From IMG/VR virus record IMGVR_UViG_3300021091_000012: a stretch of 64,000 nt of DNA. The stretch is one strand, 5' to 3'. Position numbers and translations under genes: made by a program. Within the stretch, counting starts at the first letter, position 1; each line of letters opens with the position of its first letter. A model generated the notes under the pieces. It was not told the DNA's origin. It saw only the letters and a list, made by a program, of their open reading frames with translations, and ran no database searches. Source of the stretch: a virus. This document shows positions 445-28,192 of the stretch, in pieces.

Positions 445-1328
445 CCTTTAAGTCTGTCTTTTTTGTTACACTTATCGGTTCCGTTAAATGGACAATACCT
501 GCATGCACTAGTCTCAATAGCAGGATAAGTAGCTTCTATGTTATATTGACCATCCTCTGTAAAGCATGTATCTAAAAAATCTTGAAACATTCTTCCTATT
601 TTGTTTCTAGTCACCTTACCACTAGCAGGAGCAAACAGCTGTATGCGTTTCGGAATAAACTCTGCGTTTTCATTTATCCTACGTCTCACTATTAAATACT
701 CAACATCGATCATCTCTGGATCCCAATTAAACTGCTTTGCATAAAACTCCTTGTAGAGTATCAACTGGGCTGTTTTACTTTGATCTGTTTTTTGATATTT
801 ATTCCATCCACTAGTGGACGTTTTGATATCCCACACCTTGATACGATTAGTACGCTCATCAAGTATAACAATATCAATAAATCCAACAAAGCGAATGTTA
901 TTTTTGAGGTCAATGCTCAATGGAATCTCGACACCCATTAGTTTGTGTTGCTTGCTAGGAAAATAAACCCTCCTATGTCTTTTAAGATATTTTAATATCT
1001 CGATTCCATCGTGCAAAAACTCAGCTAGCTCTTTAGGAGTGCTGAAATGTTGTCCATCCCTTTTATTAACAGCTTTTTTATATTCAGCATACATCTGCTC
1101 TTGTAGATACAAATGTAGATCGATTAAATCTGCTTTCTTAGCGGACTCGGAATATAGTACTTGTAGGTAATGCTGAACTGTGTTATGAAACGCTGTTCCA
1201 AATAAAGTATTAATATTATCTTCGTATGTACGTAAGTTATCAATATAGTCAAGCTTCCATCTTAATGGACACTTGGCATATAGTGAAAACTGAGAATACG
1301 AAACTGTTTTTTGCTTTATCTCACTCAT
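441..1328 (-). CDS. PD-(D/E)XK nuclease, Cas4/AddB-like with Fe-S staple cysteines
   Basis: N-terminal SYSQ...KCP, FGTAFH, G-F-I-D...D-I-K-T nuclease motif, QLxxY, C-terminal CRYC-x7-C. Confidence 0.8.
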   Translation of the reverse strand: MSEIKQKTVSYSQFSLYAKCPLRWKLDYIDNLRTYEDNINTLFGTAFHNTVQHYLQVLYSESAKKADLIDLHLYLQEQMYAEYKKAVNKRDGQHFSTPKELAEFLHDGIEILKYLKRHRRVYFPSKQHKLMGVEIPLSIDLKNNIRFVGFIDIVILDERTNRIKVWDIKTSTSGWNKYQKTDQSKTAQLILYKEFYAKQFNWDPEMIDVEYLIVRRRINENAEFIPKRIQLFAPASGKVTRNKIGRMFQDFLDTCFTEDGQYNIEATYPAIETSACRYCPFNGTDKCNKKDRLKG

Positions 1329-1633: not shown

Positions 1634-3277
1634 CTAGTAGTAGCTTGGAACTGAGGATTCTTTTTCTTCTTTTTCTTCAGGATCAAAACTGATAACGCAC
1701 TCTGTGGTAAGCAGTGTTCCAGCTACTGAGTTTGCTAGCTCTAATGCTGTACGTGTGACTTTGGTTGGATCCACAATTCCAGCCTCAAACATATTACATA
1801 CAGTGTTTTGTCTAGCGTCGTAACCGACAAATGCTGTATCCTCTTTCTTATCCTTAATAGTATGCTCAATCAAGTGAGCAACTGTATTAGGACTTTGTCC
1901 AGCATTTTCTACGATAGCACCAAATGGCGCTGCGCAGGCCTTTTTGATAATCTTTACTCCTAATGCTTGGTCGTCATTTTCTGTCTCAACTTCCAAGTTT
2001 TCACTAGCATGTAGTAGTGCCATCCCACCTCCTGCAACAATACCCTCTTCAACAGCAGCGCGGGTTGCATGTAGAGCATCATCAACTCTATCTTTTTTTT
2101 CTTTTAATTCGATCTCAGTAGCCGCACCAATATTCAGTACTGCAACTCCACCGATAAGTTTGCTTAAGCGCTCTTTTAGGAATTGCTTCTCGTAGTCGCT
2201 ATCAGCTGCTTCGTATTGATCTTTGATATATTGGATGCGCTCTTTGATTGCCTCAGAGTCTCCAGCTCCATCAACTATTACAGTCTCATCCTTATTTACT
2301 GTAACCATTCTTGCTGTTCCTAACTGGTTAGCTGCAAGTTTCTCTAACTTCATTCCTTTTTGAGTTGCTATCACTTCGCCTCCGGTTAGAATAGCCATAT
2401 CCTCTAGCATGTGAATTTTACGATCACCAAATCCTGGTGACTTAATTGCACAGATGTTCAAGATGCCTCGAGCTTTGTTTACAACCATAGTTGCAAGCGC
2501 TTCCCCATCAACATCATCTGCTACAATTAAAAGTGGCTTACCTTGCTTGCTACAACTCTCTAATAAAGCTAGTACTTCCTTAATGCTACTGATTTTTTTA
2601 TCGTAGAATAGGATTAGCGGATTCTCCAAAGTTGTACTCATTGTACTTTGATTTGATACAAAGTATGGTGAAATAAATCCACGATCAACTTGCATACCTT
2701 CAACGATCTCTAAAGTTGTCTCAGAGGTCTTACTTTCATCAACTTGGATTACACCATCCTTACCAACGCTATCCATGGCCTCAGCGATTATGTTTCCTAC
2801 GCTTGTATCATTGTTTGCAGAAATAGTTGCTACTTGACGAATTTCGTCAATAGACTTTACATCACGGCTAATTTCACGCAAAGACTCGATAACATGAGTA
2901 GTAGCTTTGTCCATTCCACGCTTTAACTCTACTGGATTAACTCCTGCATTAATAGCTTTCAATCCCTCGTTATACATGACGGAGGCTAATACTGTTGCCG
3001 TAGTTGTACCATCTCCAGCCATCTTAGCTGCCTTCATAGAAACTTCTTTGATAGCTTGTGCTCCCATATTCTCAATTGGGTCTGTAAGATAAATCTCCTT
3101 TGCAACAGTTACACCATCTTTTGTAGATATTGGTGCGCCATTCTCTTTTTCGATTAATACATTGCGACCCTTAGGGCCTAATGTGGACTTAACTGCAGAA
3201 GATAGTTTGTTTATTCCGTTGCGCACTCTATCTCGTGCTTCCACATCATAACTGATAATTCTTGACTTATTGCTCAT
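1634..3277 (-). CDS. groEL: chaperonin GroEL
   Basis: [42 protein letters not shown]; lacks the GGM tail. Confidence 0.97.
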
Positions 3278-3278
3278 G

Positions 3279-3578
3279 TTACTTGTTAATTTTTGTTATT
3301 ACATCTCGTTCCTGTACCGAGTGATACTCTACACCCTCGTATTCAAATGTTTGTGCGGCAAAGCGTTGATAAAGAATTATATCTCCAGGCTTAACTGTTG
3401 TTTCAATAAACAATCCAGGTGCTGCCCAAAAACCCTTCCCTACATACTGTACTTTTGCTTTAAGTAGTTTTTGTTCACTAATTTCAGGAAGTATAATACC
3501 TCCTTCACTCATTTCGTCTTGCTCTACCGGAAGACAAATCAGCTTATCGCTGATTGGACTAAATAAATTGTTGCTCAT
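3279..3578 (-). CDS. groES: co-chaperonin GroES
   Basis: PISDK, SEGGIILP mobile loop, VGKG, VKPGD; adjacent to groEL. Confidence 0.92.
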   Translation of the reverse strand: MSNNLFSPISDKLICLPVEQDEMSEGGIILPEISEQKLLKAKVQYVGKGFWAAPGLFIETTVKPGDIILYQRFAAQTFEYEGVEYHSVQERDVITKINK

Positions 3579-3636
3579 AATTTTATAACTGTTTTATTTA
3601 ATATAAGAAAAAAAGACCCAAGAACAACCGCTAAAG

Positions 3637-4047
3637 CTATTTAATTTGTAACTTTTTTGGTTTTGCTTCTTCAGCAAACGGCACCGTAATGATTAACAAA
3701 CCGTTTTCCATTGTAGCACTGCAGTTTGCTAAATTATACTTAGATGCAATCTTATAAGCAAGATCAAATGAGCGTCGAGCTACTCCGCGACATTGGTATG
3801 TGCGAGCTTCTTCGTCTCCTTCGTTTGATTTAGGTTTATCGTATGAGATACGAATCACATCCATTTCAATATCAATATCAACTTCATCCTTAGTTAGACC
3901 GGTGCATGCGATCTCAAGGACTAGGCCGTCTGAATGTTCATAGATGTCTACTGGGTGGGGTATTTTGACTTCTCGTAGAATATTGAAGTCGGAATGGCTG
4001 TCGAATACATTTCGGAACAGCACATCAAAGTGTGATAGTTTGTTCAT
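3637..4047 (-). CDS. small heat-shock protein, Hsp20/alpha-crystallin family
   Basis: PVDIYE, RGVARRSF, ATMENGLLIITVP, KPKKLQIK C-terminal IxI-like motif. Confidence 0.92.
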   Translation of the reverse strand: MNKLSHFDVLFRNVFDSHSDFNILREVKIPHPVDIYEHSDGLVLEIACTGLTKDEVDIDIEMDVIRISYDKPKSNEGDEEARTYQCRGVARRSFDLAYKIASKYNLANCSATMENGLLIITVPFAEEAKPKKLQIK

Positions 4048-4137: not shown

Positions 4138-4818
4138 CTACGCTTGCTTAAGCAACTTTAATAAAGCACCGCGATTAATCCATCTAGATTTTGCGGTTCT
4201 GTTGGCTTCTGTGATTATATTTGACTGTGCTTGAAGAGCTTGTATTGTAGTGTCTGGCAGTCCTTGTTCCTTTATTACGCCACTAGATGGAGCAAACTGA
4301 GTAGACGTATGCTCATCATCAAAGAATGGAATTTGAAACTTGCGTCCTTTTACTTTAGTATAATAGTCGTCAGCATTATTCATATTAATAAAAACGTCTC
4401 TTTGCGCTAAAACCTGCCCATATCGATTGTCTGTGTATATTAAACTGAAAGTCATACCATCATATGTTTTGCCACCTTTAGTATCTGTAAGCTTTTCACC
4501 AAAGATTATAGACTCTTGACTAAATTGTTTTCCTAATTCTAGAGCTTCTTTTTTGGTTATATTTGGAATAAAAAAAGAATTTTCTGGACCACCATAGTGT
4601 CCTTTTACCTTCTTAAAGCCCAAATTCATTACACGTAATCGCTTTTCTAGCTCATTGTTTGCTTGTTTATTTGTAGCTGTGTCTGCGGCTTGTCCGTTTG
4701 GGTTTTCTGCTGTGAGGAAAGCTAGTGTTTGTACAGTAGGAACTAGTCCGCGCATAATATTAACTACACGAGCATATCCTGCTTCATTAAGTATCTGTTT
4801 AAGTTTTAAATTATTCAT
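4138..4818 (-). CDS. DUF3293-like protein with putative head-targeting N-terminus
   Basis: FLTAENPNG...N..L...G.Y..ENSF...QESI pattern; begins MNNLKLKQILNE. Confidence 0.5.
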   Translation of the reverse strand: MNNLKLKQILNEAGYARVVNIMRGLVPTVQTLAFLTAENPNGQAADTATNKQANNELEKRLRVMNLGFKKVKGHYGGPENSFFIPNITKKEALELGKQFSQESIIFGEKLTDTKGGKTYDGMTFSLIYTDNRYGQVLAQRDVFINMNNADDYYTKVKGRKFQIPFFDDEHTSTQFAPSSGVIKEQGLPDTTIQALQAQSNIITEANRTAKSRWINRGALLKLLKQA

Positions 4819-4829
4819 GTTAATTATAA

Positions 4830-7070
4830 TTATTGATGTCCTTCTCCAAAATTATCCGCAATGTTTGGCTCTGCTACTAGTCCAGTTGCTATTTGTACAG
4901 TATTCTCCATACATTCTTTTGTGATAGCACAAGCTCTCTGTGCATGTTCTGCTTTGGCGTTAATCACAAACTCGTCGTGAATCTGCAACATGATACATGC
5001 ATCTAGTCCTTCTTCCTTAAAGCGCTTGTGAATTTGTATTGCTGATCTATTCATAATGGATGCTGCTAGAGATTGTATTTGAAAGTTCTTACAGTTGTTA
5101 AGACCATTCTTGTACTCCATACGAAGCTTCATTAGCTGTTGAGTTTGTTCGGGTGTCTTGGCCATTCGCTTCATTTGAGAAAACGGACCTGGTTCAATAA
5201 GACTGTTCTCAAACTTCTCGTAGATTCTCTTTACTCGATCTAAGTGACGAATACGTCCAGTTTGGTTTTTAACATATCCAAACGTCTGAGCTTTAAGATG
5301 ACTATCGCTCATCCACTTTGCCAATTCAGGGAAACCTTCTAAGTATCCATCGATCATCTTCTGTGCTTCTCTAATCTCGATATTGAGCGATTGACCAATT
5401 TGCCACGCACCTGCTCCATAAGGAATAGCAAGTGCAATACTTTTTGCTCTTTGTCTAAGCTCTGGTCGCAAGTTCTTAACATAGTTGTCATCACTTTTTT
5501 TTGCCGACATGCCTCTAAGCTTAAACGCTTGAATAGCCACTCTACAATATAAATCCTCATTGTTGATAAATACGTTAATCAAATTTGGGTCATTACTTAC
5601 TGATGCGAACACTCGAGGCTCCAAAGACGACTGATCACAGATAATAAACTTTCTACCATCCTCAGCTTTCAAAAAGCTACGAATAATGTTGTTGTATCTA
5701 AGTACTAACTCACTTTGCTCTCCTTCTTCCAACACACGAGGTAGCTGTTGGCAGTCGGAGCTAAAACGACCTGAGGTAGTTCCATGTTGTTTGAAGTACC
5801 AGTAATATCTTCCGTCTTCATTTCCGTCTAGGAAACGATCGACGTATGCAGATTGTATCTTGTTGAGTTTGTTGTAGTCTCTTAGTTTAGCAGCCCAAGC
5901 ATGGTCTTTATGTATATGTTCGATGAAGTCATCGTCAAACTGATCTGTTCCTTTCTTTGTTTGGCTAATAGGCTTTATGCCCATATATTTAAAACACATC
6001 TCAGAAAGCTGTTGCTTACTACTAATATTGATGAATGCACCTTCTTTTTGCTTAAGGAGCTCAAGACTAATAGCAATCTTATCTTGATCATTAAGGTCCT
6101 TATCATCTCCTGTCTGCAAAAACTTCTGTCCAGCAGCTGGATCAATAAGCTGTGGTAGCTTCTCTTCAATTAGCTTTCCGTAATGTCCTCTTTTCTTTGG
6201 AGGATGGTTTGTTAATGCCTTAGCTACAACCCACTGTTGCACTTGACCATTCTTCATTAAGTCCGAAATGATTTCTTGCTCAAGTCTTAGAATATTTGCG
6301 TTGATGTCTTTCTTTGTTTTCTCGATTAGTGGAATATCTAACTCTGTACCGGTCTCTTCCATTTGTATAGTTACCGTCTTGTAGAGTGGCATCACCTCAT
6401 CGTTGAAAAAGAAATCCCACAATCCCTGCTCTTTAAGTACTGGCAGGTAGTATGTCATAACTCGAAGTGTCAAATCGGTATCTGCTGCTGCGTACTCTCC
6501 TAACAAGCTCATATTTGCTTTAAAAATTTCAAAGTTGGTCTTTGTAATACTACCACCATTCCTTTGAATAGACTCTTTTAGTTTTACTTGCTCTTCGTTA
6601 GCTTCTTTCTCAGCATCTAGTCCTAATTCATTTTGAATCTCAATAGCAATGTCTTTCAAACCAAAAGGACCATCCTCTTGTAGAGTATGGCGTAGTAACA
6701 TCGTATCACAATACAGATCATCTCGCAAATCAACACCATAAAAGTTTTTAGTGTACCGGACGTCAAACGAGGCGTTATGCATTACTAGCTTTTTGCCTTT
6801 TAGCATGTTGATAAGTTGGCGTGCAATGTCGTCGCACTTCTTGCCACCAATATAAGAATCTATAAGCGATTGACTATCAACATCCCAATATCTAGTTGGA
6901 AAGTAATAACCTTCTCCAATATCTGCAGAAACAGAAAAACCAATGATCATTCCATTTCTTGGATTAACACTAGTCGTCTCAGTATCGTATGCGATAATGT
7001 TTCCGTTCTTAATATAGTTGGCCAGCTCTACGACACCAGCTTCGTCGGTTATGATTTTATATTTTTTCAT
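4830..7070 (-). CDS. polA: family A DNA polymerase with 3'-5' exonuclease (replicative)
   Basis: ExoI DTETT, ExoII HNASFD, ExoIII YAAAD; TTSGRFSS; motif A CDQSSLEPR, motif B RQRAKSIALAIPYG, motif C QIHDE. Confidence 0.95.
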   Translation of the reverse strand: MKKYKIITDEAGVVELANYIKNGNIIAYDTETTSVNPRNGMIIGFSVSADIGEGYYFPTRYWDVDSQSLIDSYIGGKKCDDIARQLINMLKGKKLVMHNASFDVRYTKNFYGVDLRDDLYCDTMLLRHTLQEDGPFGLKDIAIEIQNELGLDAEKEANEEQVKLKESIQRNGGSITKTNFEIFKANMSLLGEYAAADTDLTLRVMTYYLPVLKEQGLWDFFFNDEVMPLYKTVTIQMEETGTELDIPLIEKTKKDINANILRLEQEIISDLMKNGQVQQWVVAKALTNHPPKKRGHYGKLIEEKLPQLIDPAAGQKFLQTGDDKDLNDQDKIAISLELLKQKEGAFINISSKQQLSEMCFKYMGIKPISQTKKGTDQFDDDFIEHIHKDHAWAAKLRDYNKLNKIQSAYVDRFLDGNEDGRYYWYFKQHGTTSGRFSSDCQQLPRVLEEGEQSELVLRYNNIIRSFLKAEDGRKFIICDQSSLEPRVFASVSNDPNLINVFINNEDLYCRVAIQAFKLRGMSAKKSDDNYVKNLRPELRQRAKSIALAIPYGAGAWQIGQSLNIEIREAQKMIDGYLEGFPELAKWMSDSHLKAQTFGYVKNQTGRIRHLDRVKRIYEKFENSLIEPGPFSQMKRMAKTPEQTQQLMKLRMEYKNGLNNCKNFQIQSLAASIMNRSAIQIHKRFKEEGLDACIMLQIHDEFVINAKAEHAQRACAITKECMENTVQIATGLVAEPNIADNFGEGHQ

Positions 7071-8594: not shown

Positions 8595-9419
8595 TTATAT
8601 AATTGTTATTGGTCGATGGCATTGTGAGCTGAGAAAGGCAACATTGCTCTTTACAAGATCCATATCAATATTGCTCATGTCGTAAGTCTCCAAAAAGCTA
8701 TGTGGAGTTGGGATACGAGTAGTATGGTCTACACTAAAGTCCTGTCCATGTGCAGCTGCTAGTACTGGGAACACTGAGTCAGTGCTTCGTATCATTGGAT
8801 GATCGTAGTATGCAAATTCAGTTGGATCTCCTTGACCTAGGCAGTGGATTGGCTTCTTGAGCATGTCTCTTTCCTTCAAATAATCATATGCTGCATGACG
8901 AGCTTCTTTAATGTATTGATCATCTTGATAAGTTCTAAGGTTGCTGAAGTGATCATCTGACATCCATGCACTCGGAATTGCAATCTTAGAGAATCCGATT
9001 ACATCAATCCAATCTTGATTAATACCCCACTCATAGGCTTCCAACCAATCCTCCTTAGTTTTACCTTGAGGACAGAAAAAGAGGTCTATGTGAAAAAGAT
9101 CAGACAACCCTTCTGCTCGCAGTCTTTCTCTAAAAGAGATGGCGTTAGCAATTGTAGCGTCCTTATCAAATAAAACATCTGGTGCAATTACTTCATCAGG
9201 TAACAACTCCTTGCAGATATCTATTAAAACGTCCTCAGTAACCAAAGCTCTTTCTGCTGCTGAGTTATCTAATGTGATCCAATAACCCTCTTCTTTGCGA
9301 GCTTTAATGAACTCTCGGTACTCAGGAAACTGCACCCATAAGTGAGCCAATGCAAAGATTCGATCTCCCAGCTTCATTGGCTCTAAGTTGCTAACTGGTG
9401 ATATAACGTAAAAATCCAT
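8595..9419 (-). CDS. dpdA: DpdA-like / TGT-fold DNA guanine transglycosylase
   Basis: TGT-like motifs LDNS, PD, PQG, IHCLG, RSTDS; located in a que-gene cluster. Subfamily not assignable by eye. Confidence 0.65.
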   Translation of the reverse strand: MDFYVISPVSNLEPMKLGDRIFALAHLWVQFPEYREFIKARKEEGYWITLDNSAAERALVTEDVLIDICKELLPDEVIAPDVLFDKDATIANAISFRERLRAEGLSDLFHIDLFFCPQGKTKEDWLEAYEWGINQDWIDVIGFSKIAIPSAWMSDDHFSNLRTYQDDQYIKEARHAAYDYLKERDMLKKPIHCLGQGDPTEFAYYDHPMIRSTDSVFPVLAAAHGQDFSVDHTTRIPTPHSFLETYDMSNIDMDLVKSNVAFLSSQCHRPITII

Positions 9420-9437
9420 TACTTATTGTGTATTTTT

Positions 9438-10439
9438 TTAACAAACTAAACTTCTATAAACTTCTACAGGAACATCAGATGTTAAGCCACCCTCAACTCC
9501 CTTCACAATAACCGATATAGCATCGTGTGAGTGTAGCGATTCCAAATGTGAACATATCACTTTAAAGTCTAAAACCCTTGAGTGTTCATCTAATCTCTGA
9601 TGTAACAGTCTAGCAGCATCCTCAACAAACTTCAGATTTGCACCATTTAGTTCAGCAAAAGCCTGCTCATCCTCACGTTTAACCATTACTTGTGTTTCTG
9701 TCTGTAAAGCTTCAATACATAGGTCTCTCACATCCTCAATCCAAATCATATCGTCAAACTCTATTGTAATTCGTGTTTTTGATCGTTGAGAGTGTGATAC
9801 AACTGCCTTATTGCGCTCCTCCATCGCTTGCATAGCCAGCTCAAAGCTGCAAGGACATGCTGATGAATATACAAAATCGAAGTGTAGGTATTTCTTGAGA
9901 TCACCGTTTTGTTTGTGATGAGCTTCTAACGATACGTTATAGTATTGGTAACCAGATAGACCACTTCTCAGTGAGTTTTGGATTATTGGAAATGAGAAGT
10001 TTAATATAATGTGTGCATCATATGATCCTAATTTCTCTTTGTACGATTTTAATACAGTCTCTAGTAAATCAATCGAGAACGTATTATCTTTGTATTCATA
10101 GAATGTTCTCATAATTCTTGACATGTTAATGCCCTTCTTCTCAGCCTCTAATGATACAGTTCCCGTTACAGAAGTCTCTAACTCGATCTCTCCGCCTTCC
10201 TTTAATTTATACTTAATAGGAAGTCTGAAATTATGAATACCTACTTGTTGTATTTTTACATGCGAACCTTGTATGTTAGAGGATGGTCCATTTTGTAAAT
10301 CGTGCAATGTACACACATACTCTTCATTGGATTTGAAATCCTTATCATACGATCTGTCTAGTTTGTTAGAAAGTGAATTAGGATTGTCTTTGTATGGGAT
10401 ACCGCAATCGTCTCCCAACCACTCGTAGTTTCCTGCCAT
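9438..10439 (-). CDS. folE2: GTP cyclohydrolase I type IB
   Basis: IQQVGI, KGINMSRI, SSACPCS, HSQRS, VKREDEQ, FVEDAAR, ESLHSHDA. Confidence 0.93.
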   Translation of the reverse strand: MAGNYEWLGDDCGIPYKDNPNSLSNKLDRSYDKDFKSNEEYVCTLHDLQNGPSSNIQGSHVKIQQVGIHNFRLPIKYKLKEGGEIELETSVTGTVSLEAEKKGINMSRIMRTFYEYKDNTFSIDLLETVLKSYKEKLGSYDAHIILNFSFPIIQNSLRSGLSGYQYYNVSLEAHHKQNGDLKKYLHFDFVYSSACPCSFELAMQAMEERNKAVVSHSQRSKTRITIEFDDMIWIEDVRDLCIEALQTETQVMVKREDEQAFAELNGANLKFVEDAARLLHQRLDEHSRVLDFKVICSHLESLHSHDAISVIVKGVEGGLTSDVPVEVYRSLVC

Positions 10440-10457
10440 AGTTGTTTTTTTGCTTTA

Positions 10458-10937
10458 TTAATAGTTGTGTATAATTTGTAACCTTTCTTCGAATATATTA
10501 AAAATCTTTTGACATTCCAACTCGATTGGCATATTGTCTGCTAAATCGAAAGGCTCAACGTCTTTTTCTGCATTGCGTGTTTCGTATCGTCGTTTACGTG
10601 TTTCGGTAGGAACTTCTATCCATATTAGTTCGCTTTTTGGATAATACTCCAGCACTTTTTCAACAATACTAGCTTGTCGGATCCCGTCAACAATAATTGT
10701 TTTTCTTTCAATGAGATTTTTTTCTATTGCTGTTGTTAATGCATCTAAGCAGCTAATAATCTCTTCAGCAATTCGCTCATCCAAATGCATTGTTTGTTGT
10801 AGTTTGTTGCGATCTTTGCTTTGTATTAAATCGCGAACAATATTAGATACCACTATACGATAGCTAGTAGTGTCATTAAAGGACGACTTTCCGCTACATA
10901 TTCGTCCAAACAAAAAAAGTATATCTGATTTTTTCAT
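10458..10937 (-). CDS. P-loop nucleoside/nucleotide-monophosphate kinase-like protein (probable start 10937)
   Basis: LFGRICSGKS Walker A, IIVDGIR Walker B-like, RxxR lid (ETRKRR); ATGA overlap with the upstream gene. Confidence 0.7.
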   Translation of the reverse strand: MKKSDILFLFGRICSGKSSFNDTTSYRIVVSNIVRDLIQSKDRNKLQQTMHLDERIAEEIISCLDALTTAIEKNLIERKTIIVDGIRQASIVEKVLEYYPKSELIWIEVPTETRKRRYETRNAEKDVEPFDLADNMPIELECQKIFNIFEERLQIIHNY

Positions 10938-11275
10938 AACTCTACTATACCAAAAAATTCTCCATCTTCCGACACTGAGCATCGACAAAGTCCAAAGTAA
11001 TTTAATAAATCTTCTGCTATCATTTCACAAGACATAGCTCCAAAGTTGCAGCAACCGTAGGCTGGATCGTACCAAGTGCTTGCAATATATTTCTTGATCT
11101 TGTGCTTGAAGTCAATGAACTCAATATCACGATCACCATGACTTACCTCTGCTCTACAAACAATCTGAAAGGTGTGTCTATGTAGATGTGCTAAATAATC
11201 TACGTGTGGCAAGTTGCAATCTGGCCAGTGATGCAATCCTTCTACATCTATTCTTATTTCTACAAACTTCTTCAT
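10934..11275 (-). CDS. dpdL: QueD-paralogous T-fold protein, DpdL-like (predicted CDG decarboxylase)
   Basis: HHWPDC, LAHLHRHTF (LxxxHRHxF), DRDIEF, SCEMIAE, VSEDGE; a separate canonical QueD is also present. Confidence 0.65.
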   Translation of the reverse strand: MKKFVEIRIDVEGLHHWPDCNLPHVDYLAHLHRHTFQIVCRAEVSHGDRDIEFIDFKHKIKKYIASTWYDPAYGCCNFGAMSCEMIAEDLLNYFGLCRCSVSEDGEFFGIVEL

Positions 11276-11757
11276 TACTTCTTATCTTTATCTTTTTGCC
11301 ATTGACCATCGTACAAATCCGCTGGAGTATTCTCTAGCATGATTATCTGAGCTACTCGTGCTCCTTTCTCAATGTGCATTTTATTGTTAACAAACATAAC
11401 TCCACCCATCTCATCTACTTCAAATCCTGGATCATAAACTCCAGATGTGATGATTGCTCCACAGCGTAGAATGGATGATCTGTGTCGAATAAATGCCGTC
11501 CTATTCTCAGGAAGCTTGCAGCCTTGATCGAACGTCAACGAATATACTCCCGGCTCGAGTGTAAAGATATATTTACCGGTTGGTGATAGGGTTGGTTGAA
11601 CTAGCTCGTAATCTTCTACGACGGTTTTGTCTTTGAGGACCATGCCTCCATAAACCCTATTGACTGCTTTTAGTGTGAGGTCGTAACCTACTTGAGCTTT
11701 TGCTCCTTTGTTATTTGTCTGTAGCAACTCGGCTACTTGATCTGCGTTTAATAACAT
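11275..11757 (-). CDS. trimeric dUTPase / dCTP-deaminase-fold protein
   Basis: GYDL, RSS, SGVYDPGF, GARVAQ, C-terminal YDGQWQ; the deaminase-type Glu after the DPG motif is not obvious. Confidence 0.8.
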   Translation of the reverse strand: MLLNADQVAELLQTNNKGAKAQVGYDLTLKAVNRVYGGMVLKDKTVVEDYELVQPTLSPTGKYIFTLEPGVYSLTFDQGCKLPENRTAFIRHRSSILRCGAIITSGVYDPGFEVDEMGGVMFVNNKMHIEKGARVAQIIMLENTPADLYDGQWQKDKDKK

Positions 11758-11777
11758 AACTTCTGATTGATTTTAAA

Positions 11778-11808
11778 TTAATATATGATAAGCTTTCGTA
11801 ATTTGCAA
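11778..11808 (-). promoter_or_regulatory. TTG-N20-TATATTAA promoter driving dut-dpdL-kinase-folE2-dpdA
   Basis: Exact 20-nt spacer. Confidence 0.6.
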
Positions 11809-11882
11809 CTACTAAATCTAGTAAGTCTAGGTGGCCTACATTGTCTGGGCATAGGCCTATAATATGTAACAGTTCGTGCATG

Positions 11883-12659
11883 CTAAACTCCTCTCTTTGT
11901 ATCGTAAGCAATAATATGATCTCGTCCAGTCATGTTGTAACCCTTTTCAGCACACATCTCAAAAACAATAGGATACATCTTGATAAGCTCTTCTCTTGTA
12001 TCGCCAGCTGGCATAATATACGTCTTTTCTTTTGGAATCAAAAGCTCTAGTCTAAAATTTTCTATTTCTTTAAGATTGGATTCTGTACCATCCCATACCG
12101 GCTTGTAGTGATAATCTGAATGGTAGGTCAATGTTTCTTTTATTGCTGATATGTTTAACCTAAACTTGTTATGCTGCGCAACCATCCTTTCATCCGTAAT
12201 CGTGCCTTGCGGCGTAGGAGTACCCACAACGGGAACGCTATTGCTAAACTTAGGACTAAGACTGATAAGCCCAATAGGATAATCGGTAGCAATAAAATGC
12301 GAGCCCTCAGTTTCAATTGTGATAAGAATGTCTTTTTCATGTGCAAAATGGGTTAGCTCGTTTACTAATGCTGGATGCATTGTAGGTGATCCACCAGTAA
12401 GCATCATCTCCTTAACGTGTGGATTCTCGTCATATATCCTTATGATATCATTAAACGTGAAGGTCCCCTTCTCTGGATGAATACTAGTGTACCAGCTGTC
12501 GCACCATCCTCCTTCTCCAAAGAAGCATCTGTGAGTGCATCCGGTTGTTCGTACTGCGATTGTTGGTCGGCCAAATCTTGACCCTTCTGATTGTACACAT
12601 CGATAGAGTTCAACTATCGGTAGTATTTTATTGTAATCTGTAACTCTTCCTGGTTTCAT
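11883..12659 (-). CDS. queE: 7-carboxy-7-deazaguanine synthase (radical SAM)
   Basis: ELYRCVQSEG, VRTTGC, CTHRC-x7-CDS, LTGGSP, IETEG, SLSPK. Confidence 0.92.
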   Translation of the reverse strand: MKPGRVTDYNKILPIVELYRCVQSEGSRFGRPTIAVRTTGCTHRCFFGEGGWCDSWYTSIHPEKGTFTFNDIIRIYDENPHVKEMMLTGGSPTMHPALVNELTHFAHEKDILITIETEGSHFIATDYPIGLISLSPKFSNSVPVVGTPTPQGTITDERMVAQHNKFRLNISAIKETLTYHSDYHYKPVWDGTESNLKEIENFRLELLIPKEKTYIMPAGDTREELIKMYPIVFEMCAEKGYNMTGRDHIIAYDTKRGV

Positions 12660-12660
12660 A

Positions 12661-12894
12661 TTAAAAAGGTAAATCGTCGTCTAAGATTTCTTGAACTGTT
12701 TGATTTGGTTTTTTAAAGTACTCATCCAAAAAAGTTGCTGGATACTTTAAAACTAAACCTGAGTAATTTGGATTCTCAACTTCGTGTGATGTTGCCCTTA
12801 TTCCCTTAGCTTTTGCAGCGGCATAAACTTCTTTTCCTAGTTTGGAACCAGCAGGTTTGCCAAGGTACTCGTACAGTGATAAATAGTTTTCCAT
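12661..12894 (-). CDS. hypothetical protein
   Basis: LSLYEYLGKPAG; ends DDLPF. Confidence 0.6.
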   Translation of the reverse strand: MENYLSLYEYLGKPAGSKLGKEVYAAAKAKGIRATSHEVENPNYSGLVLKYPATFLDEYFKKPNQTVQEILDDDLPF

Positions 12895-12961
12895 GTAACC
12901 TTATTTTGTGATTGTGTAAATTATTTTAACATCTCCTACTGTGCTTGTAGTAGTCCAGTAA

Positions 12962-13438
12962 TTATTCTTCATAGATACTTGAGTTTTTATCGTTTTCAAA
13001 ACATTCAACTTTAATGCACTTGCAACGTCCTGCATCTGTTTTAGACAACACGTCGTTGAATTTATCGTACACTAGCTTTGCACAAGACTCTGCTCCCATC
13101 TTCTCCATGAAGTGAACTTTAGCAAGTCCCATCTGGCCTAGCTGTTCAAATATATCTGCATACGGATCATCCTTTTGAATTAGTAAAGTGTGATCCCACA
13201 TATGATCCATCCACGACTTTAAGCCGTTGCCTACTGGAGCATCTTTGAAACCTCCATAGTCCACAATCCAATTCATATCATCTAGTTGATTTTCTTCTAG
13301 TGGTTCGTTGGATGCAAACCAAACTTTAAACTTTAGAGCATATCCGTGTAGCAATTCACAATGTGAGTGTGATGCTTTCCATTGACGGATTGCAACTGAG
13401 TAATTGTCAAATAACTTTGTTGAAATGTATCTACCCAT
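12962..13438 (-). CDS. queD: 6-carboxytetrahydropterin synthase
   Basis: CELLHGY (CxxxHGH-like), DYG, WDHTLL, AES, FEN T-fold motifs. Confidence 0.88.
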   Translation of the reverse strand: MGRYISTKLFDNYSVAIRQWKASHSHCELLHGYALKFKVWFASNEPLEENQLDDMNWIVDYGGFKDAPVGNGLKSWMDHMWDHTLLIQKDDPYADIFEQLGQMGLAKVHFMEKMGAESCAKLVYDKFNDVLSKTDAGRCKCIKVECFENDKNSSIYEE

Positions 13439-18732: not shown

Positions 18733-20103
18733 TTATTTTGTTAAATTTTGTAATTCTGAAAATTTATTTGCAAGTGCTTTTCTTACAACCTCAGAATCAC
18801 TTTGCATCATTGCTTTTGCTTCTTTACCCATTACAGTGCTTTCAGCAAAAATTTCTATCTTTGAAGCCGACATATTCATTCGGCTCGGAAAGGTCAGTCC
18901 ATCCGGACCAAATCGATTCTTAATAACGTGCCATCTACCAGTACCTGCTAACTTATCTGTTACCTTTCTTGATAGTGATACGACAAAATCAGCTACCATC
19001 ACCTTTGAGTATGATTCTGCAATCTTGTCTGCTTCAATGATATCTTCCTCAAGAGCTGATCTATTTGCTTGCGATGCGGTGTAGATTGGTATTTGATATG
19101 TACCAGCCATTCCTCGCAAATCTTCGTAGATGTTTCCTAACATGATATCATTTCGAACAGCACCTTTTGAACTAGTATCTCTTAGCAAGTCTGCGTAGTC
19201 TACTAGTATTAGATCTGGTTGAAATCCTTGCATGATGCATTTATCAAGATGTGCTGACAGCATTGTTACTGTAGCAGCTTTGGTTGGATAGTATTTTATA
19301 ATTAACTTTCCTTTAAGCTTTTTGAGTTTATCCACAACTTCGTCTTGATGAAACTTCAAGTCTTGTGAAGGAATACCTGTATAATGTGAATCGAACCGAG
19401 CACCTACGTAGGTCTCCGAAAGTTCAAGAGTATAGTAAACTACGTTAAGTCCACTTTTAACTGCAGCTGCTGCTATATTAACTAAAGCCATTGACTTACC
19501 AATACCAGCTGGTGCTACAAATACTCCCATCTCACCGCTACCTAAACCACCATCCATGATTTCGTTGATCACATCCCATGGCGTTGGAATTGTATTCCTC
19601 TTATTTTCAACAAATCTTGCACCTATATCATCTACGTATTCGTGACCTATGTTTCGATCGGTCCCAGCCTTCATAGCTTCATCAATAGCAGTCTTAATGT
19701 CATCATACTTTCCTGACTGCAATAACTGAACTGATCGTAAGATAGCTTCTTTGATCTTTTGATTTTTACAGAACTCTAGGGTACGATCTTTAATGAAATC
19801 TAAATCAGTTGATTCAGTATATCTAACTACCTCCTTTAAAGTTTCTATAATAGCCGTTCTTAATACTGGTTCCTTTTCTTCGTCTATGTGTATTTTCAAT
19901 ACCTCCAGTGTTGGTGGAGTTTTGTACTTATCAAAGTACTCTAAAAGAGTTTGAGCTATCCACTGCGATGAGTCTGAGGAGAAGTATTTAGGATCTATGA
20001 TATCATGTATCTGTTGTAAAAAGATTCTATCCTTAATAAGGATTGTAAGCACCTTATTCTGAAACGCTGTTCCGTAAAACTGTAATGTGTCTTGTTCTTG
20101 CAT
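18733..20103 (-). CDS. replicative SF4 helicase (T4 gp41/DnaB-like)
   Basis: APAGIGKS, YTLE, LVDYADLL, TASQANR, KNRFG. Confidence 0.92.
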   Translation of the reverse strand: MQEQDTLQFYGTAFQNKVLTILIKDRIFLQQIHDIIDPKYFSSDSSQWIAQTLLEYFDKYKTPPTLEVLKIHIDEEKEPVLRTAIIETLKEVVRYTESTDLDFIKDRTLEFCKNQKIKEAILRSVQLLQSGKYDDIKTAIDEAMKAGTDRNIGHEYVDDIGARFVENKRNTIPTPWDVINEIMDGGLGSGEMGVFVAPAGIGKSMALVNIAAAAVKSGLNVVYYTLELSETYVGARFDSHYTGIPSQDLKFHQDEVVDKLKKLKGKLIIKYYPTKAATVTMLSAHLDKCIMQGFQPDLILVDYADLLRDTSSKGAVRNDIMLGNIYEDLRGMAGTYQIPIYTASQANRSALEEDIIEADKIAESYSKVMVADFVVSLSRKVTDKLAGTGRWHVIKNRFGPDGLTFPSRMNMSASKIEIFAESTVMGKEAKAMMQSDSEVVRKALANKFSELQNLTK

Positions 20104-20109
20104 ATTGAT

Positions 20110-20140
20110 TAACTATACTTAATTCATTTTAATCTAGCAA
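20110..20140 (-). promoter_or_regulatory. TTG-N20-TATAGTTA promoter upstream of helicase
   Basis: Exact 20-nt spacer. Confidence 0.6.
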
Positions 20141-21184
20141 GGTATATTGATCTAATTTCTGAGTGACTTCTCTTATCCACACTTCCACGTTCCTGATGGC
20201 GTTTGTCATTCCATCTTCAAAAATCATTTGATGAAACTTTATCTTACTCAGCTTTACGACAGGAGTTTCAAGTGTGGTTATAATTTTAAGTCTTGTGCTT
20301 GTTGGTATTCCGCTTTCAGAAAGTTGCATGATTTGATGAAACAAGCGAATGTTAGATTCTGCTTGAACTACTTTTTCGTATAACTTAACTTTAGGATGCT
20401 CAGCAGCTAGTTCTTTTGCATATTCTATAAAACCATCAACACTCATATACTCTGACCGTGTCAGCTTTGGAAACCTACTTGCTATTGTCTTTACTCCTAA
20501 CCCTGACACTCCTGGAATGTTATCACTATCATCACCTAGCAATGCTCTATAAAGAGCAAAGTTATATGGCATAATACCATACGTCTCATACACATCGGTT
20601 GTATAAAATAACTGCTTTTTGATTGGACTCCAAATATGAATACGGTCATTAACAAGTTGCATAAAATCCTTATCGGAAGACATGATAAACACCTGAGAGT
20701 CTCGCTCTTTGAGGTAGTCTTCTGAGACGTACGCTATCACGTCGTCGGCTTCAACTCCATCAGAAACAACAGTAGTGAAAGGCATTACCTCGATGTACTC
20801 GACAAGCCTCATTAACTGCTCTCGTTGATTATCCTCTTTATCCACAGTTTCAGCTCGATTCAGTCTTATCTTAAATGTACGATTAGCTTTATACTCAGGA
20901 AAGAGTTTTTTGCGCTTTGCCGATCCATCCTTACCATCAAACACAATAATAACCCTTGTAGGGTTGATTGCCTTGATTGCATGCCCAACGCTTAATAGAA
21001 ATCCAGAAATACCGCCTACATGCTCTCCATTAGTATTTGTAGTAGGACTTGCTGCATAAGCTCTAATAAAGGTGTTGAGGCCGTCAACAATTAACACTCG
21101 AGAATTCTTCGTGTCTTGTTGACTAGCCCCTTCGCCCCTGAGTTTTACCTCATTAAAGTATGCTAGATACTTTTTGTTGATCAT
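20129..21184 (-). CDS. 5'-3' exonuclease / flap endonuclease (T4 RNase H-like)
   Basis: LIVDGLN, VFDG, YKANR, EADDVI, SSDKDF, GDDSDNIPGV. Confidence 0.93.
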   Translation of the reverse strand: MINKKYLAYFNEVKLRGEGASQQDTKNSRVLIVDGLNTFIRAYAASPTTNTNGEHVGGISGFLLSVGHAIKAINPTRVIIVFDGKDGSAKRKKLFPEYKANRTFKIRLNRAETVDKEDNQREQLMRLVEYIEVMPFTTVVSDGVEADDVIAYVSEDYLKERDSQVFIMSSDKDFMQLVNDRIHIWSPIKKQLFYTTDVYETYGIMPYNFALYRALLGDDSDNIPGVSGLGVKTIASRFPKLTRSEYMSVDGFIEYAKELAAEHPKVKLYEKVVQAESNIRLFHQIMQLSESGIPTSTRLKIITTLETPVVKLSKIKFHQMIFEDGMTNAIRNVEVWIREVTQKLDQYTLLD

Positions 21185-21188
21185 AACC

Positions 21189-22334
21189 TTAATCTTCTAA
21201 CTCTCCTTCATCTACCAATATTTCATCCGGATCAACTAAGTTTTGATCTCGATATTTCATAACATAGATGTCGCAGATTTTCTTGTAACAATAATTCTTC
21301 AACTCCTCATCTTGCTCGAGCATTCCTCTCCAATCTTTTGACTGGAACTTAATCTCTTCACCAGTCTCCTCGTTCACCATTGCGTACCAAGCTCCTGAGC
21401 CTTTAATCGTTCCGTAGTCTTTCATAAGAGTCAGCCAGCTATTATAGTCATCAATTCCTGAATTGAAATAAATGTCAAAGGTTGCTTTCTTGAATGGAGG
21501 ACCCATCCGGTTCTTGATAATCTGAGCTTCTGTCTGTACTCCGATAATCTGTTCAGTCTTTCCTGATCCGCTTTTCAATTTACCCACTCCCTTCAATCGA
21601 ATTCGGCAGCTTGCATGAAATCCTAGAGCCTTACCTCCGGAAGTAGTGTATTTATCTCCAAACATCACACCCATTTTTTCACGTAACTGAGATGTACAAA
21701 GTAAAAGTACTCGCTGCTTTCCAATAATATTCGTAATCTTACGCATTGCTTTTGACATTAGGATAGCCTTAGAAGTGGCCCATCCATCCTTCTCGTAGTC
21801 TGCGTCTTGTTCAATCTTAGTTGTTGCTGCCGATACTGAATCAAGTGCAATTGTAACTAGTCTATTTTTACTACTCTTACGAACGGTCTCAATAATGTTT
21901 TCAATAGCATCAAACGAATCCTCTATTGTTTCTAGTGGAACGTATAGCATATTACTAACATCAACACCTACTGCTCTCAAGAACTCCTCACTTAATGCAT
22001 TTTCAGTATCAATATAAACTGCAAGTCCACCTTTTTTCTGAGTATTAGCTAGTGTGTGTGCTACAATTAAACTCTTACCAGATGCTTCCATTCCTTGGAG
22101 TTCAACAATTCGACCTACTGGGAATCCTCCGTTCGGTCGATTTGAGATAGCCAAGTCTAACAAAGATGATCCAGTTGATACCCATTCGGTTAAATCTGTT
22201 GGAGTATCCTCTTCACCATTTAAAAAGTGAGCTGCTTTGAAGTCTTTGAATTTCTTATTTAGACTGTCCGCTAACATTGAAGCGAGCTCGTCCCTTCCCG
22301 AAATCTCATCGGGCGTCTTCGTCGACTTTGCCAT
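21189..22334 (-). CDS. recA: RecA/UvsX recombinase
   Basis: STGS..LD, GRIVEL.GMEASGKS, YIDTE, DSV, QLREK.GVMFG, GGKAL.F.AS, KNR. Confidence 0.93.
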   Translation of the reverse strand: MAKSTKTPDEISGRDELASMLADSLNKKFKDFKAAHFLNGEEDTPTDLTEWVSTGSSLLDLAISNRPNGGFPVGRIVELQGMEASGKSLIVAHTLANTQKKGGLAVYIDTENALSEEFLRAVGVDVSNMLYVPLETIEDSFDAIENIIETVRKSSKNRLVTIALDSVSAATTKIEQDADYEKDGWATSKAILMSKAMRKITNIIGKQRVLLLCTSQLREKMGVMFGDKYTTSGGKALGFHASCRIRLKGVGKLKSGSGKTEQIIGVQTEAQIIKNRMGPPFKKATFDIYFNSGIDDYNSWLTLMKDYGTIKGSGAWYAMVNEETGEEIKFQSKDWRGMLEQDEELKNYCYKKICDIYVMKYRDQNLVDPDEILVDEGELED

Positions 22335-22339
22335 AACTA

Positions 22340-23116
22340 TTAAGAATTAAATAGTGAATCAAATGCAGACGAAATGTCATCAGTATTTGTTGCTGTAGTT
22401 GCTCCTGTGATTGGGGTTATTGCAGGCTTTGTACCTTGCTCATCAGTTTCTGTTTCAGGATCTAACCACTTTTGCAATACTTCTGTCATGTCTTCATAAG
22501 TCGGCTCTGTAAACAGCTCAGTGATGTTTTTTTGATTATTTACAATCATCTCAGCAATCTCTTTGTCAGTTGTTGCAGGATTTGTGTTAGGTTTTACTCT
22601 CACTGTAAATGATGGAAATGCACCTTCTTTTTCTGCAGCAATATGCTCTACAGTAATGTCGCGTCCATTCATTAAATCTGTGATGTCACCATAGTCTGGA
22701 TCTGCAATTACACTTAAAAGTTCTGTATAAATTTGCTTACCAAAAGCCCAAAACTTAACCCCTTCGTGTTCTGCACCTCTTACAATAATTGGAGCATAAA
22801 CTCGAAACTTTGGTTCGATTTTCTTTCCTAGTTTCCAATCATCCTTGTCTCCTGACTTTTTAAGCTTTTCAGCAAACTCTACTATTGGATCGGGACGTCC
22901 AAAAGATATCGGAGATATCATTGTACGTTTTCCAATCTCATAGTGGAAGTACATTTCTAAGAATGGATTGTTTTTGTCAAATGCGTAGGGTACAATACGT
23001 ACTTGAGATTTTCCTACTGGTGGTTTCCAGATAAAGTCACTTGACTTGTTACCACCTCCTGTTGATTGTTGCATTGCTTGCAACTTTGCTTTAATCGCGT
23101 CTAAATTAATCGCCAT
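22340..23116 (-). CDS. single-stranded DNA-binding protein (T4 gp32-like)
   Basis: WKP.G...VRIVP, DPI.E, GVKFW.FG, DITD...GRD; acidic C-terminus ending FDSLFNS. Confidence 0.85.
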   Translation of the reverse strand: MAINLDAIKAKLQAMQQSTGGGNKSSDFIWKPPVGKSQVRIVPYAFDKNNPFLEMYFHYEIGKRTMISPISFGRPDPIVEFAEKLKKSGDKDDWKLGKKIEPKFRVYAPIIVRGAEHEGVKFWAFGKQIYTELLSVIADPDYGDITDLMNGRDITVEHIAAEKEGAFPSFTVRVKPNTNPATTDKEIAEMIVNNQKNITELFTEPTYEDMTEVLQKWLDPETETDEQGTKPAITPITGATTATNTDDISSAFDSLFNS

Positions 23117-23220: not shown

Positions 23221-23601
23221 TTATCGCGACAGCTCTTGTATTTTTATTAACCTGCAGTTAAATTCTGAATCTGACAATAAAAGCGTATCTTGGTAGTTAC
23301 TCCAATCAACCCTAAAAGTCTTATCCAGAACTCCATTGTTAAGGGATTGTATTAAGCTGTTGAGAGCATTAATACTATAAAACGTATTTGTTTCTTTTTT
23401 TCTATTAATAGAGATTGTATCTTTCATTCTTCTACCATCACCAGATACATTGTAAATGCACACTACATTACTGGGTGTCTCAGTGTATGAATAACACTTC
23501 ATGTTAGATATATTATCTGTTGTGTAGGTTTTATAAACTTCACCTATACATAAGGCTAATTTGTCTAAATAAGTAAATGTGCATAGTAGCTGTGGCTTCA
23601 T
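23221..23601 (-). CDS. hypothetical phage protein
   Basis: QLLCTF...RKKETNTFYSINALN...W..Y. Confidence 0.7.
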   Translation of the reverse strand: MKPQLLCTFTYLDKLALCIGEVYKTYTTDNISNMKCYSYTETPSNVVCIYNVSGDGRRMKDTISINRKKETNTFYSINALNSLIQSLNNGVLDKTFRVDWSNYQDTLLLSDSEFNCRLIKIQELSR

Positions 23602-23836: not shown

Positions 23837-23870
23837 TGTACGGATAAGTTTATTATAAATAGTCTACTTA

Positions 23871-25175
23871 TTAACAAAGTTTCATTTCTGAGTAATTTGA
23901 TCCCTTCTTTAACTTTACTGGGAATTTATCCAGGTCTATGTTTTGCGGAATTACCTCTTGCAATAGATAATCTAACTCATTAGACGGTACATCAAATAAT
24001 ATACTATCGTATGTGTATAATATTGGGACAGCTTTTTTTGTTTGTAAACAATCCAAGATAGGTTGTAGCGTAATCACATTAAATTCAGTTTCATACATCT
24101 GCAAAAAATAATTGAAAAGAGTGTATAAACTTATATCTTGATAGTTTGCTATCATAAGTTTTCTACCTGATATGGGGCTTTCAACGTATCCATACTGCGT
24201 AGCATAAGACCATAGCTGCTCTGCTAAATCTTTTGCTGCTTTGAAAAAAGGCACATGCAGATATTGCTTACTAATACCTCCATATATTTGTCTAAACGTA
24301 GATTCTTTTGCTTGTATGATTTGAGTTTTTGTAGGTGCTGGTGTGTTGTGGTAATGCTTTGCTAGATGTTCGTATACATCTTCCTTTCCAAAATCATAAC
24401 CCATTAAAGATGCAATAAGTCTAGGGTGGTAGGAGTTAAAATCTAATTCTACTAAACAACCATCATCAAATCTACTAACAAAGCAATCTCGTGAACCATC
24501 ATCCTTATTGAGAGCTGCAAAGTTGATTCCACCAAACCTATTACTAGGTCGGCCTGTAGTTGTGTAGTAATTATATTGTGTGTAGCTTTTGGTATTATTG
24601 ACCGAAAACGACTGACCAAAAGCTTTAGTAAAATAGTCTATGTTAATTTGCAATCCATTTTTTTCTATGTTGTAGAATAAGGAAAGAAGTTGGTTTTGAT
24701 AAAAATCCAGACCGGGCTGCTTGTCTGCTAGATAAATTCTCTGAAACAGCTCATAGGCAATATGCTCATGCTTAGGTAAACTGACTAACGATCCAAGAAC
24801 ACTACAATCTGATATATATCGAGCATAGTGGTTAAGTATTCCTGGTGTTTCAAAATTACACGGTTGATTAAGTTTCAAATAATACTGCAACTGAGCATCT
24901 ACAAAATTAGATGTATCATAACCTGCATACTTTAGTAATATGGTATCATAGCTGTATACGTTGCATTTATATAAAAAGTTAAAGTTATTAACTTTGAAAA
25001 CACCATCTGGATGTGTCCTGCTTATAGAATAAGTTTTGTGTGTATTAACATCGACCATAACTAACGCTACAACCTCACTCACTACTCGATGTCTACGACT
25101 ATCTTGCAATACTGGATAAACGAATAAAGTTTTTCCAGACAAAGACTCAAGTTGATGTATGTTATCTATAACCAT
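23871..25175 (-). CDS. second, degenerate family A polymerase-like protein (probable start 25175)
   Basis: IEKNGL, TTTGRPSN, motif A ELDFNSYHPR, motif B AKESTFRQIYGG, motif C YTYDSILFD; exonuclease motifs not recognisable. Confidence 0.8.
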   Translation of the reverse strand: MVIDNIHQLESLSGKTLFVYPVLQDSRRHRVVSEVVALVMVDVNTHKTYSISRTHPDGVFKVNNFNFLYKCNVYSYDTILLKYAGYDTSNFVDAQLQYYLKLNQPCNFETPGILNHYARYISDCSVLGSLVSLPKHEHIAYELFQRIYLADKQPGLDFYQNQLLSLFYNIEKNGLQINIDYFTKAFGQSFSVNNTKSYTQYNYYTTTGRPSNRFGGINFAALNKDDGSRDCFVSRFDDGCLVELDFNSYHPRLIASLMGYDFGKEDVYEHLAKHYHNTPAPTKTQIIQAKESTFRQIYGGISKQYLHVPFFKAAKDLAEQLWSYATQYGYVESPISGRKLMIANYQDISLYTLFNYFLQMYETEFNVITLQPILDCLQTKKAVPILYTYDSILFDVPSNELDYLLQEVIPQNIDLDKFPVKLKKGSNYSEMKLC

Positions 25176-25204
25176 ACATCTAATATACAAAATTTATTTA
25201 GATT

Positions 25205-28113: not shown

Positions 28114-28192
28114 ATTTTACTTTATATATAAATACTACATTAGTGTTCCAATCAAACTTTTGTGGTAGCACTGGTTATATTTGCGACCGTTA

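Follow-up and report, generated by a model that had tools for sequence, protein, structure and literature searches.

The 64,000-nucleotide stretch of IMG/VR virus record IMGVR_UViG_3300021091_000012 analysed here (the window) encodes, besides a regular family-A DNA polymerase (PolA), a second family-A polymerase of 434 amino acids (aa) that almost certainly belongs to the divPolA1 family. We give about an even chance to the reading in which divPolA1 is an active auxiliary DNA polymerase that fills gaps and extends recombination intermediates, a function inferred from its residues, fold and gene context. It would be a template-dependent, non-proofreading enzyme of low processivity, and its activity and its preference for deoxynucleoside triphosphates (dNTPs) are likewise deduced from its conserved residues. 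Together with the neighbouring 5'-3' exonuclease (FEN), it would perform short-patch synthesis, filling gaps after primer removal as a split Pol I, and it would extend the recombination intermediates made by RecA and SSB. Bulk replication would be left to the regular, swappable polymerase.

The mechanical open reading frame (ORF) call at 23871-25190 on the minus strand begins at a TTG, five codons 5' of an ATG at 25175 that lies 29 nucleotides past the stop of orf226. From this ATG, the 434-aa product is letter-identical to database protein P0002, its homologues align starting at residue 1-2, and the relatives among the matches listed are nearly all 420-447 aa long. Judged from the database match and the homologue alignments, the true start is probably ATG 25175 and not TTG 25190. 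A first-pass annotation, made by a model from the letters, had reported a PolA homologue of about 434 aa over the longer frame; the frame and the length stand, and the start probably moves. In a single-sequence phmmer search against the PDB the protein matched nothing, and a family profile was needed to obtain a match. It scored 17.2 bits against Pfam DNA_pol_A (PF00476), below the gathering cut-off of 34.3, and matched PHROG_17 'DNA polymerase' at 1e-11. The divPolA1 gene of Flavobacterium phage immuto (1-1326 of MW353176) was matched by tblastn with E 6e-39 and 28% identity over 91% of the query.

The gene is not new. The family was named, by computation only, in 'DNA polymerase swapping in Caudoviricetes bacteriophages' (Virol J 2024;21:200; PMC11348598), where it is reported from immuto and relatives, 14 phages being described. 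Its traits there are a truncated thumb, an exonuclease domain inactivated by replacement of its Asp residues, and conserved palm residues; in these genomes, replication genes are conserved downstream of divPolA1, and the regular DNA polymerases (DNAPs) lie near GroEL/GroES and nucleotide-modification genes (PMC11348598). What the window adds is a fairly distant member and residue-level detail. Its protein is just 28% identical to the immuto prototype. Both measure ~434-441 aa and have a Klenow-like fold with a truncated thumb, conserved residues in the palm and an exonuclease domain that is probably dead. At both loci SSB, a recombinase, FEN and DnaB follow, and the regular DNAP sits beside GroEL/GroES and nucleotide-modification genes. 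The Results and legends of PMC11348598 contain no discussion of the gate His, the Y-D-S/A motif C or the lost Arg754. One search returned 2105 family proteins; an exhaustive one, clustered at 50% identity, gave 985 representatives, 520 with E below 1e-30, and nearly all had lengths of 420-470 aa. Aquatic myoviruses of the immuto type, with genomes of roughly 155-190 kb, carry divPolA1 as a fixed gene.

To map residues, the family profile was aligned to the Klenow fragment (E 3e-12), and residue composition was taken from 253 relatives of roughly 30-100% identity (Table 1). The first-pass annotation had aligned the protein by hand, reading both catalytic Asp as retained, His at the steric-gate position Glu710, Arg754 as lost and motif C as Y-D-S, and the profile reproduced each of these assignments. 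D245 and D390 are invariant, while K290, Y298, R209 and Q359 are invariant or nearly so, which favours catalysis. Compared with canonical Pol I (PF00476), the gate Glu of motif A, the Arg of motif B and the HDE of motif C are all replaced, whereas the Lys, Phe, Tyr and Gly of motif B are kept. Motif C reads Y-D-S in 224 of the 253 relatives and Y-D-A in 27, and HDE was never observed. These unusual residues are fixed characters of the family and not noise, in an active site that is altered yet complete.

The altered gate had also suggested a ribonucleotide-tolerant enzyme, a suggestion that was not supported. His is about as large as Glu. In PolD, His931 is an experimentally proven steric gate that excludes ribonucleoside triphosphates (rNTPs), with discrimination tracking side-chain size, and for the polymerases of family C, too, a gate formed by His has been proposed (PMC7708050). 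The Glu gate needs Phe762 for its full effect (quoted in PMC13697223), and the equivalent F294 is kept in 248/253 relatives of the window protein. Since His is bulky and a proven gate in PolD, and since Phe762 is kept, ribonucleotide tolerance cannot be inferred from the loss of Glu710; the same two features, His and F294, favour dNTP use.

Structure prediction, proposed as a check by the first-pass annotation, returned a confident Klenow-like fold: the AlphaFold2 model, with 69 diverse relatives as input, had a predicted local distance difference test score (pLDDT) of 96.2 and a predicted template modelling score (pTM) of 0.92. The best Foldseek match of this model was to Klenow (E about 1e-20). 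With VIA, 407 of its 434 aa were aligned to the Bst Pol I large fragment, an exonuclease-dead Pol I, at Z 27.4 and a root-mean-square deviation of 3.7 Å. The best 50 PDB matches by Foldseek and VIA were all Pol I-type DNA polymerases, namely Klenow, Bst, Taq, M. smegmatis Pol1, Pol nu and Pol theta. Because model residues 1-432 align to Bst 302-876, the N-terminal 150 residues are read as exonuclease-like and the rest as palm and fingers. The earlier view that no exonuclease motifs are visible was right for the motifs, given that the window polymerase had no match to the Pfam 3'-5' exonuclease and the family consensus (PIxxDxxxH) has no DxE, but an exonuclease-like fold is still there. On the evidence of that consensus, Exo I is absent from the divPolA1 family. 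The domain keeps the nearly invariant residues H29 (243/253), H55 (243/253) and D93 (244/253); D93 could be the Exo II Asp, and the three residues may be part of a structural network or make up a small new site.

The thumb is reduced to a remnant. Profile positions 166-200 and 182-200, one query segment with two targets, match Klenow chain residues 201-235 and 305-323, respectively, and since one profile stretch matches both Klenow segments, the window protein lacks an equivalent of ~85-90 residues in the thumb hairpin of Klenow. Low processivity is predicted from the missing thumb, in keeping with what is established from thumb deletions in Klenow. Compared with the Bst and Taq large fragments, the window protein is about 145 residues shorter, lacks the thumb hairpin, has His for Glu710 and YDS for HDE, and has its FEN as a separate gene, with Arg754 replaced by Ile/Tyr/Val in the family. 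Common to both are an exonuclease-like domain, probably inactive in the window protein, joined to a palm/fingers polymerase domain, and the equivalents of Arg668, Asp705, Lys758, Phe762, Tyr766, Asn845, Gln849 and Asp882.

Gene neighbourhoods of divPolA1 were compared in 45 related loci of 28-68% identity, drawn from isolates, IMG/VR and metagenomes, and the order was constant: baseplate hub, orf956, orf98, further genes, divPolA1, orf126, SSB, (RecA), FEN, DnaB and RNR. The position first given for the gene, between the baseplate block and SSB-RecA, was correct. The features of the window are collected in Table 1.

Table 1. Features of the window and residue equivalents of its divPolA1 protein (residue rows: Pol I numbering, window residue, composition among the 253 relatives)
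Feature	Position	Strand	Remarks
divPolA1-family polymerase gene	23871..25175	-	434 aa (P0002); ATG start 25175, stop 23871-23873; exact database match
Exonuclease-like domain, residues 1-150	24726..25175	-	without DxE motif; predicted vestigial 3'-5' exonuclease
Thumb remnant, residues about 151-205	24561..24725	-	from Klenow profile alignment and Bst fold alignment
TGRPSN motif (Pol I TGRLSS equivalent)	24540..24557	-	R209 = Arg668
Motif A DFNSYHPR	24420..24443	-	catalytic D245; H250 at Glu710 steric-gate position
Motif B (O helix) IIQAKESTFRQIYGG	24276..24320	-	I286 at Arg754 position; K290, F294, Y298, G299 kept
Motif C YTYDSILFD	23991..24017	-	Y389-D390-S391 replaces His-Asp-Glu
Arg668	R209		R 253/253
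Asp705	D245		D 253/253
Glu710 (steric gate)	H250		H 251, F 1, Y 1 of 253; never Glu
Arg754	I286		I 118, Y 80, V 25, L 13, R 5, M 3 of 253; hydrophobic in 239/253
Lys758	K290		K 252/253
Phe762	F294		F 248/253
Tyr766	Y298		Y 251/253
Asn845	N355		N 245/253
Gln849	Q359		Q 252/253
His881	Y389		Y 252/253
Asp882	D390		D 253/253
Glu883	S391		S 224, A 27, G 2 of 253; never Glu
Promoter-like octamer TATTTATA	23854..23861	-	in the 34-nucleotide gap from divPolA1 stop to next gene
orf126	23221..23601	-	126 aa; downstream of divPolA1 in 38/45 loci (most remaining loci end first)
Downstream replication/recombination block as a whole	18733..23116	-	conserved
gp32-like SSB	22340-23116	-	
RecA	21189-22334	-	
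FEN (5'-3' exonuclease)	20129-21184	-	both Pol I-type 5'-3' exonuclease domains
DnaB helicase	18733-20103	-	
7-deazaguanine-type gene set	8595-13438	-	beside regular PolA
QueD/PTPS	12962-13438	-	
QueE-like radical SAM enzyme	11883-12659	-	
Dcd/dUTPase-like gene	11275-11757	-	
P-loop kinase	10458-10988	-	
FolE2	9438-10439	-	
Regular PolA	4830..7070	-	3'-5' exonuclease domain; DTE (Exo I), DQSSLEPR, RQRAK..YG, HDE intact
Hsp20-GroES-GroEL	1634-4047		adjoins regular PolA

The regular PolA had been called complete, and this was confirmed, with all of its motifs kept. It differs from its paralogue in the window at exactly the DTE, gate, Arg754 and HDE sites. Across genomes the partner polymerase of divPolA1 varies: it is a regular PolA in the window and in immuto, a PolB in Mel-JY01, and a PolB together with a PolC-like ORF in the 484-kb LR756508. 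Separately, the regular PolA of the window was observed to have Leu at the Phe762 position (RQRAKSIALAIPYG), and a DUF3293 / SAM-lyase-like ORF (4138-4818) directly adjoins it.

Downstream of divPolA1, orf126 encodes a candidate replication or recombination factor. Its mean column identity is 58%, versus 37% for the polymerase, and it contains an invariant HRKK..N..Y.IN..N block. AlphaFold2 gave a confident model of orf126 (pLDDT 91), an alpha/beta fold that is ferredoxin-like in residues 1-65. No match to it was found in Pfam, PHROGs or the ESM Atlas, and Foldseek against the PDB gave nothing at E <= 0.001. A wide VIA search returned just ACT/RRM-like matches of Z about 7 over residues 1-65, which is noise level, and no OB-fold match. 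When divPolA1 and orf126, both given as alignments, were predicted as a complex, the score was 0.00, which weighs neither way on binding. The charged sequence orf77 is present, among the 45 loci, only in the closest relative (L006).

The octamer TATTTATA appears to be a phage promoter element similar to the T4 late TATAAATA. It is enriched in the window, with 15 copies versus 6.4 expected, 13 of them on the coding strand. Sites at 23854, 28127, 18709, 4112, 33483, 34627, 37620 and 46963 are among them, all on the minus strand, and those copies that were placed against the ORF list fall in short gaps 5' of genes of mixed function (structural, RNR, PhoH, Hsp20). Either TATTTATA or TATAAATA directly follows divPolA1 in immuto (L002) and in the metagenomic loci L007, L010, L015, L017 and L022. 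A scan for sigma-70 promoters and terminators gave nothing above the shuffled expectation.

An auxiliary role in gap filling and recombination accounts for three features: divPolA1 is constant regardless of which main polymerase is present, the structures most similar to it are large fragments of exonuclease-dead Pol I, and its thumb is dispensable. Several points weigh against such a role. We know of no characterised Pol I with Glu710His, Glu883Ser/Ala or the change of Arg754 to a hydrophobic residue, all of which are fixed in this family. Gap filling leaves these changes unexplained; the three point to a substrate or mechanism other than plain gap filling, and the loss of Arg754 should weaken triphosphate binding. 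Host Pol I could fill gaps as well, leaving the universal retention of divPolA1 unexplained. The adjacency to SSB-RecA-FEN-DnaB is conserved, but co-regulation with these genes is not implied, because the promoter-like octamer intervenes; divPolA1 may be transcribed with the upstream, apparently structural genes and end that unit. In the literature, divPolA1 was found named only in PMC11348598 and its preprint, and no biochemistry was found for any member. With more than 2100 proteins, the family is fixed in widespread lake and sea myoviruses, and learning what such a polymerase does, lacking both thumb and Arg754 and gated by His, would broaden what is known of active sites in family A. The reason why these phages retain two polymerases yet exchange the other freely would become clear as well, and a compact 434-aa family-A enzyme could be a useful tool if it handles sugar or triphosphate unusually.

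The first-pass annotation had proposed a specialised enzyme and listed several forms that it might take. Residue comparison agrees with a specialised, probably catalytic second family-A enzyme; the specific options were not supported. We consider it unlikely that divPolA1 makes primers or uses ribonucleotides in the manner of CcPol-MP or of T7 RNA polymerase acting at origins, supplying the DnaB-driven fork with RNA or mixed primers that it starts or extends. We hold the same opinion of a more explicit form of this reading, in which the thumbless enzyme with its His gate, Y-D-S motif and lost Arg754 starts chains or uses ribonucleotides as a PolA-type primase or primer-extender with DnaB, alongside or instead of a DnaG-like primase. 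The gate Glu is indeed lost, the Y-D-S motif resembles the HDS of T7-type enzymes, and the thumb that would grip a primer is missing. Within the 64-kb window no primase was found, either by tblastn with the immuto and Mel-JY01 primases or by Pfam/PHROG scans of the ORFs tested. There is also the precedent of a family-A primase beside a helicase: in CcPol-MP, a reduced polymerase of family A synthesises DNA primers when bound to its OB-fold partner MP, and a helicase is encoded next to it (PMC7581432, PMC10061031). In the window, as in the CcPol-MP / PolA-SSB systems of SCCmec and Bacillota mobile elements, the gene of a reduced family-A polymerase precedes those of small proteins and a helicase within a replication module. 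However, CcPol itself retains Glu710 and Phe762 while making DNA primers, is missing most of its exonuclease domain and needs the OB-fold partner (PMC7581432, PMC10061031), whereas divPolA1 has a whole exonuclease fold and a His gate, and its neighbour orf126 is not an OB fold. Relatives of the window also carry DnaG-like primase ORFs (306-333 aa), which were present in all three whole records searched: immuto, where the gene is annotated 'DNA primase', Mel-JY01 and, as a weak match, LR756508. It follows that divPolA1 is not needed as the sole primase. This primase family is abundant on contigs of about 146-162 kb; a Toprim search of five partial IMG/VR contigs found no match, and these were 25-71% complete and hence uninformative. 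The bulky His that excludes rNTPs in PolD (PMC7708050) and the retained Phe762 speak against ribonucleotide use, as does the absence of anything other than DNA polymerases among the best 50 fold matches.

T7-type RNA polymerases, of about 880 aa, have HDS as motif C, Gly at the gate and an N-terminal promoter-binding domain. They have in common with the window protein a family-A palm, a motif C without Glu and a retained Tyr766/Tyr639 equivalent, but the window protein is half the size, has no promoter-binding domain or specificity loop, has His and not Gly, has lost the Arg627 equivalent and carries an exonuclease-like N-terminus. In barbaviruses, divPolA2 is likewise a second divergent thumbless PolA beside a regular DNAP, with an unrelated N-terminal globular domain, a variable neighbourhood and fold matches that include RNA polymerases (PMC11348598); divPolA1 differs in its exonuclease-like N-terminus and fixed replication context. 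If primer making were true, family-A primases would have arisen independently a second time, after CcPol-MP, and in an aquatic phage lineage that is very abundant. It is similarly improbable that divPolA1 is the true replicative polymerase and that the regular one, among chaperonin and nucleotide-modification genes, serves repair or another task. The conserved replication context belongs to divPolA1 only, the context of the regular DNAP being variable, as PMC11348598 points out, and divPolA1 is constant while the other polymerase is swapped. Against this, a 165-kb genome would be poorly served by a replicase that has no thumb and probably no proofreading, both the exonuclease and the polymerase motifs of the regular PolA are intact, and swapping of the replicative polymerase is the very phenomenon documented in PMC11348598. 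A lesion-bypass or modified-base polymerase, for example one tuned to 7-deazaguanine nucleotides from dpd-like genes, is a still more doubtful idea. Genes for FolE2, QueD, a QueE-like radical SAM enzyme and a kinase, along with a Dcd/Dut-like gene, are present in the window, QueD lies near the module in L017, L027, L047 and immuto, and the active site is remodelled. Mel-JY01, however, has divPolA1 and no QueD, so the association with 7-deazaguanine genes is not general; these genes flank the regular PolA rather than divPolA1, and ordinary family-A polymerases accept 7-deaza-dGTP in established laboratory practice. We rate as very unlikely a late or virion-associated enzyme that would be expressed together with the baseplate-side genes upstream and delivered or used when infection begins, like the N4 virion polymerase. 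This would fit divPolA1 ending the structural block, with the promoter-like octamer after it and not before it, and another 5' of orf98 at 28127. The octamer also precedes RNR, PhoH and Hsp20, though, and is therefore not structural-only; the closest structures are DNA polymerases, and no evidence was found that places the protein in virions. Finally, we regard it as highly improbable that divPolA1 is a pseudo-polymerase serving as a non-catalytic structural partner, as had also been suggested. Such a role would fit the loss of Arg754 and Glu883 and a Pfam score under the gathering threshold, but the metal-binding Asp residues are present in 253/253 relatives, and the equivalents of Lys758, Tyr766, Arg668, Asn845 and Gln849 in at least 245/253.

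Elsewhere in the window, a PD-(D/E)XK nuclease (441-1328, minus strand) has GroEL upstream. The possibly equivalent 'exonuclease' gene of immuto follows the DnaG-like primase, so synteny is not kept.

A search limited to longer proteins returned no fused divPolA1 forms. The lone fused form seen is P0223 (935 aa, L079:2680-5487), on a single 6-kb Logan contig, with a 510-aa N-terminal part joined to a divPolA1 domain. Its N-terminal half had no Pfam match, no similarity to the divPolA1 profile and only 'hypothetical' neighbours in the Atlas. Examined by eye, the strings FDIVAAQPSLL and TVHDSIYV in this part recall polymerase motifs A and C.

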